Source of the DNA: a phage
Sequence record: NC_135728.1
Length of the DNA: 64,000 nucleotides
Strand: one strand, 5' to 3'
Within the stretch, counting starts at the first letter, position 1. Each line of letters starts with the position of its first letter. Made by a program: the position numbers and the translations under genes. Below are positions 47,697-59,018 of this stretch, in pieces. The notes beneath the pieces are model-generated. The model had not been told where the DNA came from. It was given only the letters and a program-made list of their open reading frames with translations, and searched no databases.

Positions 47697-48254
47697 TCAA
47701 CACTCTTTGTATTCCACCACGATAATATCTATATCAAAAGTGGCAAGGTTAATAACGTCCTCTACATGCTCCCACTTCAAACCGCCTATGCCGCACCCGA
47801 TTTTGGGGATGTAGAATGGTAAAGTCGATCCACTGAATACCTCATTGACCAGCTCAAAGCCTTTCAGGATTGAGAAATATTCAGCATTAGGCCCTGGGTA
47901 GAACTGAGTATACAGATTGATTCCGTAGACAATACCTCTCGGAGATGAGTGCTCCCATCGGGAGAACGCACCCAGTTTACTTAGGCAACCGTGTCTGGTC
48001 TCTTTGTCGGCTGACAATGCTTGAGGAAACTCACGGGCAATCTGTTTTGCTATGCCCTTACCCATCGTGTGGAAGCAGTTACAACCGTGGATCAGGTGAC
48101 CAGCACCGCTCTTAAAAAGGGAGATTAAATCTCCCTCTACAGTATCAATAATCACGGTATGCCAGCTCCTCTTCCGCAATTTCAAAAAACTCATCCCAAC
48201 CTTGTGGCATATTTGAGTTGCCGAAGTGGCTTTCATAGTAAAGGTTCTCACCAC
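47697..48254 (-). CDS. macro domain (ADP-ribose binding/hydrolase-like) protein
   Basis: VIIDTVEGDLISLFKSGAGHLIHGCNCFHTMGKGIAKQI matches the macro-domain N-terminal signature; true start probably internal because ORF overlaps upstream gene. Confidence 0.55.
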   Translation of the reverse strand: MVRTFTMKATSATQICHKVGMSFLKLRKRSWHTVIIDTVEGDLISLFKSGAGHLIHGCNCFHTMGKGIAKQIAREFPQALSADKETRHGCLSKLGAFSRWEHSSPRGIVYGINLYTQFYPGPNAEYFSILKGFELVNEVFSGSTLPFYIPKIGCGIGGLKWEHVEDVINLATFDIDIIVVEYKEC

Positions 48255-49348: not shown

Positions 49349-49410
49349 TTTTCAGATCTCCTTATACAAAAATGCCCCACCCTTTCGGGCAGGGCTATGT
49401 TAACTAGATG

Positions 49411-50637
49411 TTAGAAGGGGATGTCATCATCAAAGGCGTACTGTGCTGGATTCTGATCCATCGGGTCGTCTTCCCCATCATTTACAGGAGGAGCGTCTAC
49501 AGTGTTTTGCTGTGGAGCTGCTTCCTGTTTGGCAGCCTGAGGTTCTTGATGGTCAGTTGACCCAGCACCGTTCTTGATCCAATCGTACAACGGCTCAGCC
49601 AGATTAGTCAACACATCTTTTGCTTCTGCAGTAATTGCCGCTGCAAAATCATCAACTTTCGTTTTCTTGTCAATACGGCGACAAGCGTTCAACACCGCAT
49701 TACCGACACTGGCACCTACTTCATCTTCAGTTCGGTTGGTGGCTTGAGCATACTCTTTCTTAAGCTCAATGGTGACTACGTGCAGTGCTTTAGCCACACC
49801 TAGTGGGTCGTCTACCTTAAACCCGCGATCCAGGATGATTTGCAACGCATTGATGCTATGCCCAGTCTCCACACCAATAGGGTCGTAAGAGGATTTACGC
49901 TTGCCACCAGAGCCTTGAGTGCCGTTCTCTGCCTTAGGTGGGTAGGCTTTGAAACCACTGATAATGTTTCCGGTGTCTTTGTCAACAATGGCTGCAACAC
50001 GACCACCTACCACCAGGTCTTTAAGCTGCTCATCAGTGACAACCATAGCACCTTCGCCAATCTTGTGGTCATTAACAGTAACCACGTTGCCAACAATCTG
50101 AGCCACATCGCCATAGATGCGTAAAACGTCCTGATTGGCATTCTGCTGAGGTTTCTGCTTCTGACCTTGTGATTGTGCACCTTGTTGCTGTTTTTGCTGC
50201 TGAGTCGCTGCTGGAGCCTCTCCTGCACCCAGCTTAACCATCTTAGCCAGTGAGCCTTTGTAGTAGGTCTTACCGTTATGCTCGTTTGCCTTCAAAGGAA
50301 TATTTACGATCCATCCTGTCGTTACGGTTTCCCACTTGTCATCAATCTTAACAGAGACAGAGTCTTGATGACCCGGTTTAAGCAGCTTATCACCCATGCT
50401 GATCCAGACTTCTTCACCACCTTGAAGCAGGTTATCAGAGGAATCCAGTTCAGAAATCAGTAAAGAGATGGTGTGGCTGGACTCAATTTTCTTACCTTGC
50501 CACACGGTGGTTTTAATACCTGTTGCAGGATCAGCCCCTTTAATAGGTTTGATGCTAACACGTTTGATCATACCGTGAGCCAGTAAAACAGTTTCACGCG
50601 GATTCATCGGGTTAGCAAATTGTTGAATAACGCTCAT
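49411..50637 (-). CDS. ssb: single-stranded DNA-binding protein-like (DDDIPF tail)
   Basis: C-terminus ends AQYAFDDDIPF, the acidic SSB tail; preceded by Q/P-rich low-complexity linker; 408 aa. Confidence 0.6.
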   Translation of the reverse strand: MSVIQQFANPMNPRETVLLAHGMIKRVSIKPIKGADPATGIKTTVWQGKKIESSHTISLLISELDSSDNLLQGGEEVWISMGDKLLKPGHQDSVSVKIDDKWETVTTGWIVNIPLKANEHNGKTYYKGSLAKMVKLGAGEAPAATQQQKQQQGAQSQGQKQKPQQNANQDVLRIYGDVAQIVGNVVTVNDHKIGEGAMVVTDEQLKDLVVGGRVAAIVDKDTGNIISGFKAYPPKAENGTQGSGGKRKSSYDPIGVETGHSINALQIILDRGFKVDDPLGVAKALHVVTIELKKEYAQATNRTEDEVGASVGNAVLNACRRIDKKTKVDDFAAAITAEAKDVLTNLAEPLYDWIKNGAGSTDHQEPQAAKQEAAPQQNTVDAPPVNDGEDDPMDQNPAQYAFDDDIPF

Positions 50638-51002
50638 TATTTATCTCCTTGTTCTTCGTTAGTGTTTGCCGTGTGTGCAAACCCTGCTTGAATTAATTTG
50701 TCCTGAACTTGAGCCAATAGGCCCATTGCAAAACTTGTGGTCCCAGAGAGGGCCATTAGCATATCTCGTTGTTGAGCTACCCAACCTAAGGCATAGTCCA
50801 AACGACGATATTTTTCTTCTTCGCGCAGAGCCTGAAATAATTGTTCAGCCTCCGGTTGTTGTGTGAGCTCCTGAAGTCTTCCCATGAAAGAAGAAAGCAC
50901 TAGCAAAAGAGACACTTGATCTTTACTTAACCCTAAGAAAAATTCTTGAGGTTGTTCTTGCTCGTTCATCGCAACCGACTCTTGATCGTTCATTTGTTCC
51001 AT
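50637..51002 (-). CDS. hypothetical protein
   Basis: 121-aa ORF, coupled to ssb-like gene. Confidence 0.45.
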   Translation of the reverse strand: MEQMNDQESVAMNEQEQPQEFFLGLSKDQVSLLLVLSSFMGRLQELTQQPEAEQLFQALREEEKYRRLDYALGWVAQQRDMLMALSGTTSFAMGLLAQVQDKLIQAGFAHTANTNEEQGDK

Positions 51003-51085
51003 TATGGAATCTCCGATTTTATTTGAACAACATAGAAGGAGACACTATTTTAGCATCCCCTTCTGTAAATTACAATATGTATTTG

Positions 51086-53497: not shown

Positions 53498-53868
53498 TGA
53501 TCGGTCTCCTTCTTGTTAAGTCTGAATACTGCAATAATAGTATTCCCAAGGTGCAGTGTCAAGTCATTTCCAAGGTACCACAGCATCCCACGGTCATCTT
53601 TAATGAAAGGGTAACAATCTGGTGCCTTCCAGACATTGTACACTTTCCCAACCTGAAAGAAATCAGGCCCTGTTGGTATTTTGGTGCCAGGCCACACTTG
53701 AGATACCTGAACACACTCCACCTGCATAATAACAGGAATGGTCATGGATGTAAATGTTTTTGTTGGCTCTACTACCATAAAAGTCTCCTCTTTGCTCAAC
53801 AGCACCTCCCTGTGCTGATAGTTTACATTAGTGACAATCCCCCCAGTTACGACCACACAAGTATTCAC
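53494..53868 (-). CDS. hypothetical protein
   Basis: 124-aa ORF; its 5' end overlaps polymerase exon 2 so the true start may be internal. Confidence 0.35.
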   Translation of the reverse strand: MNTCVVVTGGIVTNVNYQHREVLLSKEETFMVVEPTKTFTSMTIPVIMQVECVQVSQVWPGTKIPTGPDFFQVGKVYNVWKAPDCYPFIKDDRGMLWYLGNDLTLHLGNTIIAVFRLNKKETDQ

Positions 53869-54181
53869 CTGTGATCTGGAACGGGACTCCCATCATTTTA
53901 GAAGCTTGCCAGAAGCAATGCACCACCATTTCACCCACAGGGCTCCAGATAAGTTCAAGCTTTCCGTCATCGTTCAGGATAGGATCGTACACCGTGTTTC
54001 CGTCTCTGTCAACCACTTCGTTTCCGTCCTCATCCTTGCGTGCCTTTTTGTACTTATGACCGTCGAACACATGAAGTTTGGCTTCCTGCTCTGCCTTAAA
54101 TGCCTCCAGTTGCTCAATTGTGTCGAAGGTGTACACAGTCTTATACTTAGGCGTGTCAGGCACTTGAAGTTGGTACTCATC
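53828..54181 (-). CDS. DNA polymerase (family A), exon 2
   Basis: Begins DEYQLQV, completing motif C (YHDE) when joined to exon 1; C-terminus VPFQITGEYLCGRNWGDCH parallels Pol I C-terminus VPLLVEVGSGENWDQAH. Confidence 0.7.
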   Translation of the reverse strand, partial: DEYQLQVPDTPKYKTVYTFDTIEQLEAFKAEQEAKLHVFDGHKYKKARKDEDGNEVVDRDGNTVYDPILNDDGKLELIWSPVGEMVVHCFWQASKMMGVPFQITGEYLCGRNWGDCH

Positions 54182-54457
54182 CAATAGTTCAGGTAGGTCG
54201 TTAAGCTACCCCGCACCATTACGTGCATAGCCATACGTTTTCACGTAGGATCGGACCATCTCATATTCCTATGATAAGCAACCACAGGAATCCTCCCATT
54301 TCGACCGCACTTGCTGGTCTACTTCCTTTCGGAATGGCCTCTGAGCGTTCGCTCTTTTGAGCGCTTCGTTGCGGATTACCTTGCCATAAGGTTTAGGCTT
54401 CCCGCAGTTAAAGAGGTTATTCGACATAGATTACTCTATGAAGCCACAATGTTATTT
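54182..54457 (-). other. group I self-splicing intron in DNA polymerase gene
   Basis: 5' exon ends in U with U-G pair to guide sequence GUGG; intron ends in G; P10 pairing CAUU with exon-2 GAUG; core elements P AACUGCGGGAAG, Q AAUCCGCAAC, R CUCAGAGGCC, S GAGAUGGUCC in canonical order. Confidence 0.75.
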
Positions 54458-56881
54458 ATGGTAATAAATAATACGACGAACACCTTCATCGTACCACCCA
54501 CGCTTCACCATTTGGTGGTGCATGAGTATCCCAACTAAGTCACACAGCGATGCACCACCATTTTGTTGGTATGCATTAAGTAAAGAGTGTTTAGATCTGG
54601 TCCAGATAGCATGACCATCGAAAGAGTAGATAAACTTCTTACCTGTTGCTTCCCAGAATTTCTCCAGATCCTCTTTGCGCCCCTTAAGACCGGGGTTGGC
54701 ATCCCAAAGTGCATCTATTACCCTTTGCCCCAACTCTGGAGAGATGTCCAACATATCTGCAACTTTATCTTTTTGTGCCCCGTACATAACACCATACGTG
54801 ATAGGTTTACCGTCGTTACGGGACACCTCTCTGCCTGCTACTTTTGTATATGCCTCGGCATTGTTTTGGTGTGCGTCTCCGTTACTTACAACATCATAAT
54901 ACAGGCCGTTGTCGAACTCAAAGGCACCCCAAGCCCCGATAAGCTGCTCTAAGTTGGACCCGTCAATACCGATCTGAAAGTATCCGGGAGGAACACCCCA
55001 TAGACTACGCATCTCTTTACCCATAACCACTTTAGGAGATGGTTTAGGCATGTTTGCACAAATACTGTGTTTCTGTCTGGAAGTGTTTGTTAGCCCAGAA
55101 CTTTTAGCAGGAAGCTTATGGTCAATCTTCAAACGTGGGTGATTAAGAAGACCAGTATCAACCTTATCCTCCTTGATTGGGTCAAGGACCGATCTGCGGT
55201 TTCGCAATGATAACCACAAGACGATATCTTTAGCCATCTCTCCGTTCAATTTTTCAAGATTCGGACACAGGTGTCCAAACGTATCTTTCAGTTGCGGAGA
55301 AGTAATAAGTGCCCTGGCTTTTCTACGTATTTTCCCGAACACTTCCTTTTTAATCCTTTCGGAGTTAGGAAAGCTTCGGAACTTGTGCACGGTTGTCTGG
55401 AACTTAGCATCAGTTTTGTTCCAGAAGTTGATAATTAGGTCACAATACTCTGACTCTAAAAGCTCGTCCATATAAGCATATACTCGTGCATCAACATCTG
55501 CATCAGGTAGAGCTTTCTTCTTGCTGTCTTTAGTTACATCCTTAGTTCTCCACATTGTCGGGAGCCAGCCAGCGCTGATCAGATACCGCTTAATGTCGTC
55601 CTGATTGCTGATTTTCATAGGTATCTTGCAGTCCGGCATTCGCTTCTGCTGTAGATCACTTATTGCCTGATCCATCAGCTCTTTAGGCAAAGGGTGTGGT
55701 GTGGAAGTTCCCTTAATATAGCCTCTCAAGAAATCAGCCATCTTATCGGGGTCTTTGCAGCCCATCTCTTCACACCATTTTATCCCCATCTTGCTGACAT
55801 CCCCTGTAGAGGTAAATGCTCTCTTAGGCGGGGCTTTGAACTCTAAAGCGCTCATGTCTACAGGATAGCCAAGCTTATCTTTTAACCATTTCCAACCATT
55901 ATTAGAGATTGTCCCGTCTTGGTTAAACGGCTTTTCAGGGAACTTGGGCCGCTGAGACATTGACAGCTCTTTTAAAGGCAGTTGTGGTTCAACACGATCA
56001 GCTATTTCTTTCATCCACGCATCGCAACGGTCACGTAAAGCAATAGCTCCATCTATGTCGAAGTATACACCCTGACGGGCCTGCAGCTCCATCAGGAAGT
56101 GCTGCAGCATGCCTCGACGTAATGCGTTCTTCCAGGTGATCTTCTTGAACCCTTTCGGCTTCTCTTTGGCAGGATCGTACATAAAGTTCTGCATGTCAGA
56201 TTTGCCGTAGAATACACCTTTTGATTCCGCTACCAGCTCTTTCCAGAGCAGCTCCTGGATGATAACGTCCTCGAATACACGATCCACATACTTCCACAAC
56301 GGGAGATCGCGCCAGTCATCAATTTGAACTTTCTGGTTACCAAGGGCGTAGCCCCATGCCATAAGACCGTGAGGTCCAACAGGCTGCATTTTCTTAGTAA
56401 CCGGGTTAAATACTGAGTCTGGACAACCTTTTGGCAAAGGTCGGTCAGGCCACAAAATTCGGCTCATAGCCAATGTATCAAACAGATTAACCTGGTGGTC
56501 GTTGATAGTCCCCATACACTTAGGATCACGGAACATATCAAAATGAATACCGGACAATCTCTCCATCAGCATAAAGTCGTAGCTGTAGCAGTTGTGGCAG
56601 TTCAAAGCTGTGGGTGACCAGTCAGAATTGCCTGTAAGCCAACCTTCCAACTCTGAAAAATCTGCTATGCGAACTTCAAAATCTTTATAAAGAGTTTTCT
56701 TTGCCAGAATAAAGTTCTTAGCCTTCTCTATATCCTCTTCAGAGTAGTGTGTGCGGTCATTTAGAGGAAGGAACAGCATAAAACGGTTCTTATTCAGCTC
56801 TTTAAACAAGCCGCAGTGATAATAAAGATCTAGGTCTTCTAGTAAACCAGAGGCCTCCAGGTCGAAAGACCACATACTCAT
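54458..56881 (-). CDS. DNA polymerase (family A), exon 1
   Basis: 3'-5' exo motif FDLEASGL; polymerase motif A-like QIGIDGSNLEQ; motif B KPITYGVMYGA; ORF stops one codon after YYH, just before the expected HDE. Confidence 0.8.
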
Positions 56882-56939: not shown

Positions 56940-59018
56940 TTAAAAAGGTGTTTCATCGTCTTCAAAACCGGGAACAGGGTCAGAGGACGGATCATCATAC
57001 GGAAGGTCTTCTTGTGTGTCAACAGGGTTAACAGTAGGAGTTACAACCTTATCAGCCACAACCCTACCTACAGGTGTTTCTACAACTGCGTGCTCTTGAT
57101 CCTCAAACATAGCTTGAGGTCTCCAAACAACCTCCCCACCTTCTCCGTCTGTGAACATCTGCATTTCTTTGTCCCAGTACCAGTTGCTGGCATCATGGAA
57201 CTTACCTGTGTGGGGATCCATAACTAAGGTATCCGCAATGCCTAACGTTTTTGCTGGGCGGTTTTTAAGACCTACCAGTCGGACACGTCCACGGGAACGA
57301 TCCACCATCTCTTCTGCCTCCACCCCAACAACTACCCAGCTAAGTTGCTCCAATCCGGCACTACCCCGAAGGTTCTCTTTTCGTACAGGATACCAGAAAG
57401 GTAACGGATTCCCATCCTTGTCCTTTGGAGGCACAATCTCTGTGCGTTTCAGGTGAGCGATCACCAAGATAAATACATTAAACTGCTTACAGAACGCGGC
57501 TAGTTGGGTCATAGCCATGTCCAGCTCTTTTCGCTCATCCTTAACATTAAGCCCTGAAATTACCATGGACAGGTGATCCAGCACAATATAACGGCAGTGA
57601 TACAGACACACCATTTGTTTAAGCTTAGTGATCAACTCATCTACAGGAATAGACCCAAAATGCTTGAACACTTTGATTTTTCCCGCCTTGGCCCAAGATT
57701 GGTGAATCTCAGCATGCTCCTGATCAGTCAGGAACTGACTAGGGTCTTCAACAAACTCTTTAACATCAAACCCCAACTGGTTGGCGTATAGAGAGTTAAT
57801 TGCTTCCTCAGGGTCCTCTTCAAGGTGAATCAGACACAGGCGATCATCCTCTTCATAATCATCGGCTTTAGGGCATGTAGGATCCATCAAGTATTTTGCA
57901 ATGCAGTGTTCTAGTTTCTTGGCTACAGTTGTTTTACCACCGCCAGATGGGCCTGTCAGCATCATCAAGGTGCCTTTGTGAAGTCCTTTCAGCATCTTCT
58001 GCAATTTAGGGAACTCCGCGCTGATATCTACGCCATTAGAAGTCTTCTTACGAAGAGATTCAATGGAGAAGTCTTCTAAATCAGATACAGCATCAGGCAC
58101 ATATTTGACTGGGTGACGGAACATGTTGACAATATCTTCCAGCTTTTTAGCCTTCAGCATGTCACGGATATCTTTTACACCGTCAGGGTCGTTTACCTCA
58201 CTGGGGTATTCCACGTGGTAAACGTTATCAGCCATCAAAAATGCCGCGATATTATGTGTGGCTTCAACACCTTTGATAACGTGTTTTTGCTTCTCTACCT
58301 CGTTAGCTGCATCGTTGTCCATTGCAAGGACCACTGTTCCGTAGCTACGGATAAATTTCTCATTGTTTGCAAAAGTATCTACTGCGTTTGCACATCCACA
58401 GTTAATTCCAACAAAAGGCAGGCAGGGTTTTCCTGCCAGATCACCCCCGTTGATAACTGCATCGATCCCGTCCTGGACCTCTTTAGCCCACTGTTTCACC
58501 TTTGCCGGGGCTTTAGCGTTGGTGAGAATCCCTTTTACTTGTATCTGATATGCAGCCTGCCATGCTGCAATAACATCGCCTTCCCCCTCACAAACGTTAA
58601 TCTGCTTACGGTTGTTAGAAGATGCACACAGCTTTTGCCCAAACATTTGGGAGTTAGCCTTTACGATCCCAACCGTCGTAAAGTGCCCACGTTGCTCTTT
58701 GGGGATCGTCCAGTCACGCTTTTTGAAACCGGACAGATTCCCGTAGCGGTCGTAATATGGAAAATATGTTGCAGTAACTGTCACACCGTCTTCTTGGGAC
58801 AATGCTGATCGCACACCAAAATATTGTGCAGCCATCAGACCGATATTTTGTTGTGGGACAGGGACGATTTTAGTATTTTCTAAAACAGTCTCTACAGTTT
58901 CAACCTCTTTTTCATCACGATAGTCTCGTTTCACACTTCCCCCACTTTTATACTTAGTTGCTTTCGGGTTTGGCTCACCGAAACGGTTATATGCAGATGC
59001 CATAAATTTACTTCCCAT
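56940..59018 (-). CDS. primase-helicase (TOPRIM primase plus DnaB-like helicase)
   Basis: TOPRIM-like CEGEGDVIAAW in N-terminal half; Walker A MLTGPSGGGKTT and Walker B-like LIHLEED in C-terminal half. Confidence 0.75.
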   Translation of the reverse strand: MGSKFMASAYNRFGEPNPKATKYKSGGSVKRDYRDEKEVETVETVLENTKIVPVPQQNIGLMAAQYFGVRSALSQEDGVTVTATYFPYYDRYGNLSGFKKRDWTIPKEQRGHFTTVGIVKANSQMFGQKLCASSNNRKQINVCEGEGDVIAAWQAAYQIQVKGILTNAKAPAKVKQWAKEVQDGIDAVINGGDLAGKPCLPFVGINCGCANAVDTFANNEKFIRSYGTVVLAMDNDAANEVEKQKHVIKGVEATHNIAAFLMADNVYHVEYPSEVNDPDGVKDIRDMLKAKKLEDIVNMFRHPVKYVPDAVSDLEDFSIESLRKKTSNGVDISAEFPKLQKMLKGLHKGTLMMLTGPSGGGKTTVAKKLEHCIAKYLMDPTCPKADDYEEDDRLCLIHLEEDPEEAINSLYANQLGFDVKEFVEDPSQFLTDQEHAEIHQSWAKAGKIKVFKHFGSIPVDELITKLKQMVCLYHCRYIVLDHLSMVISGLNVKDERKELDMAMTQLAAFCKQFNVFILVIAHLKRTEIVPPKDKDGNPLPFWYPVRKENLRGSAGLEQLSWVVVGVEAEEMVDRSRGRVRLVGLKNRPAKTLGIADTLVMDPHTGKFHDASNWYWDKEMQMFTDGEGGEVVWRPQAMFEDQEHAVVETPVGRVVADKVVTPTVNPVDTQEDLPYDDPSSDPVPGFEDDETPF

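Follow-up and report, generated by a model that had tools for sequence, protein, structure and literature searches.

Gene organization at the locus

The sequence described here (hereafter 'the window') is a stretch of phage DNA of 64,000 nucleotides from record NC_135728.1, within which an earlier reading of the letters had singled out an open reading frame at positions 49411-50637 as encoding an unusually long protein resembling SSB (the protein that binds single-stranded DNA). Those coordinates proved accurate, and the strand, which the original prediction had not given, is minus. The gene, its upstream neighbour and their signals are as follows:

49411..50637, minus strand: coding sequence of 408 codons with an ATG start and a TAA stop (49411-49413), from the list of open reading frames and its translation
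50645..50650, minus strand: Shine-Dalgarno sequence AAGGAG, 7 nucleotides 5' of the ATG, from direct reading
50637..51002, minus strand: gene for a 121-residue protein (PHROG 7310) with an acidic N-terminus and without a Pfam match
49364..49395, minus strand: intrinsic terminator with a 9-bp stem (7 G-C pairs), a GAAA loop and a T-run, from a terminator scan and direct reading

Because the Shine-Dalgarno sequence lies 7 nucleotides upstream of the start and a strong terminator begins 16 nucleotides past the stop codon, the 408-codon frame is, to judge by its signals, a real gene; the sequence of the terminator is also kept in a related locus (L012) that is discussed below. The ATG of the gene shares one base with the TAA of the 121-codon gene (TAATG), an overlap that suggests translational coupling between the two, and the encoded protein ends in ...NPAQYAFDDDIPF.

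Just 5' of the 121-codon gene, consensus scans alone placed a terminator-like hairpin (stem of 14 bp) that is overlapped by a promoter-like site (51034-51075, minus strand), and on the basis of those two elements the 121- and 408-codon genes may form a bicistronic unit flanked by terminators. Three genes downstream of the 408-codon gene, a 185-codon reading frame (47697-48254, minus strand), which overlaps the end of a 141-codon frame, matched the Macro domain (PF01661, E=2.2e-6) and may have an ADP-ribose-processing function.

Predicted domain architecture

An AlphaFold2 model, built on an alignment of 22 sequences, resolved the protein into three confidently predicted domains, with disordered segments (pLDDT <50) between and after them at residues 141-169, 237-250 and 359-408. 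From the N- to the C-terminus, the predicted arrangement is:

50218..50637, minus strand: OB1, an elaborated, all-beta N-terminal OB fold (residues 1-140; AlphaFold2), with a pI of 8.8 and no cysteines
50131..50217, minus strand: linker 1, disordered and rich in Q, P and K (residues 141-169; pLDDT <50), of varying length in homologues (alignment indels)
49936..50130, minus strand: OB2, a minimal second OB fold of the order beta1-2-3-alpha-beta4-5 (residues 170-234; AlphaFold2), acidic, with a pI of 4.7
49888..49935, minus strand: linker 2, short, disordered and basic, rich in G, S and K (residues 235-250; pLDDT <50 at 237-250, and charge)
49570..49887, minus strand: four-helix domain (residues 251-356; AlphaFold2), with a pLDDT of about 91 over residues 253-355
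49414..49569, minus strand: acidic disordered tail (residues 357-408; pLDDT <50, and charge), with a net charge of -11
49414-49437, minus strand: SSB-type tip AFDDDIPF at the end of the acidic tail

Much of what had been proposed from the letters alone was borne out by this arrangement. The DDDIPF ending of SSB type is present, and the protein's final 8-11 residues line up with the tail of Escherichia coli SSB (PPMDFDDDIPF); the length of 408 residues is indeed about twice that of a typical SSB (178 residues in E. coli SSB, a sequence verified against PDB entry 1eqq); and the string that had been quoted as a long low-complexity, Q/P-rich linker, QQQKQQQGAQSQGQKQKPQQ, corresponds to residues 146-165, inside linker 1. 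The domain prediction that had been called for as a check found an N-terminal OB fold, both in the AlphaFold2 model and in its fold matches, and the suggested fusion of an OB fold to an extra domain is supported as a predicted structure, in the form of two OB folds and a four-helix domain.

The distribution of charge is likewise reminiscent of SSB, with a basic OB1, basic linkers and a strongly acidic tail, and with the acidic OB2 as an exception. The solved structures nearest to OB1 are binders of single-stranded DNA (ssDNA), which dominate its best fold matches:

Mitochondrial Rim1: 7.7
Thermus SSB: 7.6
Stn1: 7.5-7.6
Bacillus subtilis SsbB: 7.5
E. coli SSB: 7.2
RPA32: 7.2
RecO: 7.0-7.1

DUF2815 and the Enc34 SSB were also among the matches, as were the OB domain of proteasomal Rpt, a superantigen and an OBody. 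As far as predicted structure goes, the SSB-like interpretation is supported.

OB folds also act as protein-binding domains, as the matches to Rpt, the superantigen and the OBody illustrate, and both folds of this protein might serve in that capacity without contacting nucleic acid, so that the protein would be a scaffold or regulator of the replisome with the tip as its sole SSB-like feature. The acidity of OB2 would suit such a role, as would the finding of no homology, by sequence, to OB families that bind DNA; the prevalence of ssDNA binders among the best fold matches speaks against it, as do the overall basic character of OB1, its conserved aromatic and basic positions (H55, W78, K87, K97, W102, H/Y120, K123 and Y126) and the functional tie of the protein to an ssDNA-based defence system, described below. 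We regard this explanation as very improbable.

A further alternative is that the protein is a RecO-like recombination mediator or strand-annealing protein that acts in recombination-dependent replication, rather than at the fork as an SSB. The succession of an OB fold and a helical bundle does resemble the domain order of RecO, and the phage genome has genes for exonucleases and for a resolvase of the endonuclease VII type. The matches to RecO, however, are no better than those to generic OB folds, and the helical domain lacks a RecO match: a fold search with that domain returned only a designed helical repeat and the N-domain of serine acetyltransferase, which are uninformative. Furthermore, the protein contains no zinc motif (OB1 is devoid of cysteines), RecO binds the SSB tip and does not itself carry one, and a disordered linker with an acidic tip after it characterizes SSBs and not mediators. 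This alternative appears quite improbable as well.

Sequence classification and family

The protein matched a PHROG over its full length (phrog_4477, 'unknown function'; E=1.7e-171, residues 1-408 against positions 1-393 of the 393-position profile). Pfam yielded no credible match to the 408-residue protein, nor to any member of a diverse set of 115 from the family, and the NCBIfam model for SSB (TIGR00621) scored 13 bits, below its cutoff of 53.95, with residues 331-408 alone matched and the OB domain not recognized. For PHROGs annotated as SSB, matches were confined to the final ~40 residues of relatives of the short form. Searches of PDB sequences, using either the single sequence or the family profile, returned only the SSB tail and spurious matches to acidic tails; in the comparison of the profile with all PDB sequences, just the segment 'ppfDfdddiPF' aligned with the corresponding residues of E. 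coli SSB (1eqq). Comparison of the OB1 alignment with single archetype sequences by hhalign gave probabilities of 0.1% for the OB domain of E. coli SSB and 0.2% for T7 gp2.5. At the level of sequence, the likeness to SSB is confined to the tail, and the protein lies outside the canonical SSB, gp2.5 and gp32 families, while being SSB-like in its architecture and context.

Megablast searches placed the window among the vequintaviruses (rV5-like myophages of E. coli), with matches in 116 phage records, the best of which was vB_EcoM-Pr121LW (98.9%). About 115 of those 116 records contain the 408-codon gene, at 91-99% nucleotide identity and nearly always under the label 'hypothetical protein'; in the record of phage JLBYU08, both the gene and its upstream neighbour are labelled 'putative single-stranded DNA-binding protein'. 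More distant relatives, at 27-40% identity, were found by tblastn in 132 further records, which correspond to phages of roughly 140-150 kb that infect Klebsiella, Salmonella, Cronobacter, Pectobacterium, Erwinia, Serratia and Acinetobacter. An exhaustive search by profile, across 1.84 billion representatives, identified 255 family proteins (as 50%-identity representatives, at E<=0.001), in two forms: a long form of about 350-430 residues with both OB folds, and a commoner short form of about 260-300 residues that lacks OB2. This survey of a phage-restricted, non-canonical family with long and short forms is new here.

The best-conserved part of the family is the four-helix domain, with D252, the motif G255xxxG259-H260-xx-N263 and G308xxxG312; among 115 sequences, G312 is invariant, D252 is an aspartate in 98, and Y351 is variable. 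Nearly every member has an acidic tail with [I/L/V]-P-F at its end: of 203 proteins collected from the family, 172 terminate in P/D-F/W, 14 continue past that ending by a short extension, and the remaining 17 are mostly fragmentary sequences. Because the chance of finding a given hexapeptide at a C-terminus is ~1.6e-8 under uniform composition, the DDDIPF tip is not a chance occurrence, a conclusion to which the conservation of the ending in the family adds weight.

Genomic context

Within the window, genes for a PIF1-like helicase, a Toprim/DnaB-family primase-helicase and a family-A polymerase lie upstream of the gene and share its orientation. Of 24 independent loci, considered with 10 kb of flanking sequence, 16 have homologues of the polymerase and the primase-helicase upstream on the gene's own strand, and in the remaining clade they lie at or just past the edge of that flank; the gene order is common to relatives at 30-36% identity. 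A complete Vequintavirus genome also encodes a ligase, RNase H, exonucleases, ribonucleotide reductases and an endonuclease VII-type resolvase. In that liberally annotated genome there is no second SSB annotation, and tblastn searches with E. coli SSB, T7 gp2.5 and T4 gp32 (each query first verified against its PDB entry) gave no match in it or in the window other than the tail of the 408-codon frame, which was also the sole match to residues 134-178 of E. coli SSB. Other OB-fold proteins may be present among its roughly 150 hypothetical genes.

Several neighbouring features were recorded in the course of this analysis. The DnaB-family primase-helicase (692 residues, 56940-59018, minus strand) itself ends in an acidic tail (...GFEDDETPF), which recalls the Phe-ended acidic tails common to T7 gp4 and gp2.5; a T7-like sharing of tails between helicase and SSB was rejected as a trait of the family, the primase-helicases of distant relatives (L004 and L005) being without such a tail. 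A group I intron at 54232-54467 on the minus strand (Rfam RF00028, 64.7 bits, E=1.3e-15) splits the family-A polymerase gene, with exon 1 in an 809-codon frame (54452..56881) and exon 2 corresponding to a 118-codon frame (53828..54184), in agreement with the two-piece join annotated in phage Bas52. In the locus of a distant short-form relative (L005:9837-10001), the SSB-like gene is directly preceded by one that matches T7 gp5.9 (PF25708), a family of RecBCD inhibitors.

The 121-residue protein encoded immediately upstream is distributed in a strict pattern: a homologue lies directly 5' of the gene at each of the 14 long-form loci examined, and at none of the 10 short-form loci. This co-occurrence, which is new here, suggests from gene content that the 121-residue protein partners with the second OB fold, and it is on that account that we nominate it as a partner of the two-OB form. 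No support was found for the 'putative SSB' label that the 121-codon gene bears in one GenBank record.

Insertion and extension at the tip

In a subset of otherwise near-identical vequintaviruses, the codons of the tip are interrupted. The corresponding elements are as follows:

L012:2660-3480 and L013 (phage Mangalyan, OR449013, CDS _217/_218): insertion of ~640 bp within the DDDIPF codons, corresponding to window positions 49414-49437
L010:7150-7260 and family members P0001, P0006, P0019, P0044, P0047, P0050, P0058, P0092, P0159 and P0163: included among the carriers of a C-terminal extension

The insertion supplies a re-coded tip and 15 additional codons, resulting in a protein of 423 residues, and those 15 codons overlap the start of a 207-codon, Cys-rich frame within the insertion that is annotated as 'putative endonuclease VII'. 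Ahead of the shared terminator, the vequintaviruses that bear the insertion retain a degenerate trace of the former tip, and the two-piece pattern was seen in about 7 of the 25 best records. By these features the insertion is of the homing-endonuclease type, with the conserved tip-coding DNA as its apparent target; this observation, too, is new here.

The 15-residue extension of the vequintaviruses, APVGLQYGKSRIHAL, belongs to a more widely distributed motif, [AS]P[VI]GLQY-x4-5-[ILV][YH]x[LM], which follows D[IV]PF in 14-15 of the 203 family members and occurs in both long and short forms. A literature search for the motif found nothing. The idea that the extension is a mere artefact of the overlap with the endonuclease gene was rejected, as the lineage of P0047 has the extension without an endonuclease gene; because of that lineage, the extension is probably an alternative C-terminus of native origin, carried along by co-conversion in the course of homing. 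Given the established structures of SSB tips, the extension should block recognition of the carboxylate of the terminal Phe. Since cultured, viable vequintaviruses (for example, Mangalyan) carry the insertion and thereby bury the tip under 15 additional residues, a free tip may not be essential.

Relationship to a trigger of the DRT10 defence system

A bioRxiv preprint of 30 April 2026 described a protein of Escherichia phage RudolfGeigy/Bas52, a vequintavirus of the BASEL collection, on which activation of the reverse-transcriptase defence DRT10 (UG17) depends (Bas52_0087, QXV84166.1; 10.64898/2026.04.29.721553). The authors described its two OB folds, disordered C-terminus and FDDDIPF ending, called it SSB-like on the basis of Phold and AF2, and reported two mutants that escape DRT10, D252V and Y351C, with both substitutions assigned to a 'putative oligomerization interface' (10.64898/2026.04.29.721553). 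The protein encoded in the window is identical to Bas52_0087 at 401 of 408 positions (98%), with equal length and no gaps; the seven substitutions include one in the context of the tip (YSFDDDIPF in Bas52_0087 and YAFDDDIPF in the window). The gene order of Bas52 runs from bas52_0075 (primase/helicase) and bas52_0076 (polymerase) to bas52_0086 (the 121-codon gene) and then bas52_0087. In light of this identity and the shared neighbourhood, the 408-residue protein is, by sequence comparison, the orthologue of Bas52_0087, and its recognition here is a rediscovery of a protein that had already been described.

Both escape positions, D252 (49882-49884) and Y351 (49585-49587), are present in the protein of the window, and in the AlphaFold2 model both fall in the four-helix domain, D252 directly before helix 1 and Y351 within helix 4. 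The mapping of the two residues to that domain is new here, while the genetics of DRT10 triggering come from Bas52 only (10.64898/2026.04.29.721553).

The same study described DRT10 as built on ssDNA (cDNA) and modulated by the dosage of ExoI (SbcB), the over-expression of which weakens the defence, and its authors suggested a competition with SbcB that is based on the tip (10.64898/2026.04.29.721553). Such observations invite the view that the protein is primarily a decoy or adaptor for the host interactome, in which the DDDIPF tip titrates or redirects host clients of SSB (ExoI/SbcB, RecQ, PriA, Ung and others) so as to shield the ends of phage ssDNA or to disable host repair, with OB folds that serve only in targeting or bind no DNA. 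The antagonism between ExoI over-expression and DRT10 triggering is in keeping with that view, as are the exact copying of the host tip and its retention throughout the family, and a family hallmark that consists of the helical domain and tail rather than the OB domain. Against it, over-expression of Bas52_0087 alone was neither toxic to E. coli nor sufficient to trigger DRT10 (10.64898/2026.04.29.721553), the position in the replication module and the lack of another SSB are better suited to a role in the replisome, and variants that bury the tip under the extension are viable. We consider a primary role as decoy or adaptor to be unlikely.

Proposed function

The reading that we favour, with a probability of roughly 0.6, is that the 408-residue protein is the phage's own ssDNA-binding protein, associated with the fork or replisome and belonging to a non-canonical, phage-restricted family (PHROG 4477/Bas52_0087). 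The arguments for it are that the solved structures nearest to OB1 are ssDNA binders and a second OB fold is present; that the layout of OB fold, disordered Q/P linker, acidic tail and terminal DDDIPF is that of an SSB; that the tip is conserved across the family of 255 representatives; that the gene follows those for the primase-helicase and polymerase in the window and in 16 of 24 loci, including relatives at 30% identity; that in a complete Vequintavirus genome, which brings replisome genes of its own, neither annotation nor BLAST reveals another SSB, gp2.5 or gp32; and that an orthologue of 98% identity is needed to trigger the ssDNA-based DRT10. Arrayed against it are the lack of sequence homology to any characterized SSB, the acidity of OB2, the harmlessness of over-expressed Bas52_0087, which argues against a strong sequestration of the host SSB interactome, and the viability of vequintaviruses with 15 residues beyond DDDIPF.

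From the predicted fold, conservation, genomic context and established SSB biology, we infer how such a phage SSB might act. The mildly basic OB1, with its conserved aromatic and lysine positions, would coat ssDNA at the phage fork; the conserved four-helix domain, with its two GxxxG-type motifs, would provide self-association or contact with a partner, and it is in this domain that both DRT10 escape mutations fall. The acidic, disordered tail would then offer a host-type DDDIPF tip on phage ssDNA, and thereby recruit, or compete for, host proteins that bind such tips, among which SSB-tip biology points to ExoI/SbcB, chi, PriA and RecQ, and possibly also to replisome proteins of the phage. The acidic OB2 might be an accessory module and, as it is found only together with the 121-codon gene, perhaps the docking site of the 121-residue protein.

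A broader proposal, which is possible but doubtful, is that PHROG 4477 constitutes a distinct class of phage SSBs, defined not by the OB fold but by a GxxxG-rich, four-helix self-association domain and a host-mimicking tip. The optional acidic OB2 would work with the 121-residue partner, DRT10 would sense the helical domain and not DNA binding as such, and the 15-residue motif added in some lineages would be encoded by DNA that serves as a homing site.

The protein shows that a phage can set the protein-recruitment tip of the host SSB on an unrelated body. Several practical consequences follow, none of which alters the conclusion that the feature itself had already been described in the 2026 preprint. 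About 115 Vequintavirus records, most of which list the gene as 'hypothetical protein', could be re-annotated as 'SSB-like protein, DRT10 trigger'; the four-helix domain, in which both known escape mutations lie, is the place to seek an interface for sensing or oligomerization; the natural variants with a buried tip offer a ready means to test if replication, or the triggering of DRT10, depends on a free DDDIPF end; and the co-occurrence of the 121-codon gene with the two-OB form points to a partner protein.

Comparison with known systems

Among the proteins with which the 408-residue protein may be compared, RecO is distinguished by a helical/zinc domain of its own type, to which the helical domain here gave no match, and by binding the SSB tip, which the 408-residue protein carries. 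T4 gp32 shows no similarity by tblastn, and the absence of cysteine from OB1 means that there is no Zn-binding Cys/His motif of the gp32 type. RPA32 and Stn1 share the succession of an OB fold and a C-terminal protein-interaction domain, but they are eukaryotic, have winged-helix C-domains in place of a four-helix bundle, and are without an acidic SSB tip or sequence similarity.

The acidic C-terminal tail of T7 gp2.5, which ends in Phe, mediates protein contacts. With gp2.5 and DUF2815, the 408-residue protein has in common an OB fold, an acidic Phe-ended tail and the company of a Toprim-DnaB primase-helicase and a family-A polymerase; there is, however, no similarity of sequence or profile, and its fold is no closer to theirs than to other OB folds.

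Canonical SSB (E. coli SSB; PF00436, TIGR00621) shares the N-terminal OB fold, the disordered linker and the acidic DDDIPF tip. Its OB domain and that of the 408-residue protein are without sequence homology, OB1 is larger (140 residues, of which about 80 align), and OB2 and the four-helix domain are interposed between OB1 and the tail; oligomerization probably proceeds by a route other than the OB-OB tetramer interface of canonical SSB. Phage SSBs have recurrently been found to trigger bacterial immunity, as with retron Eco8 and DRT9, and now with DRT10.
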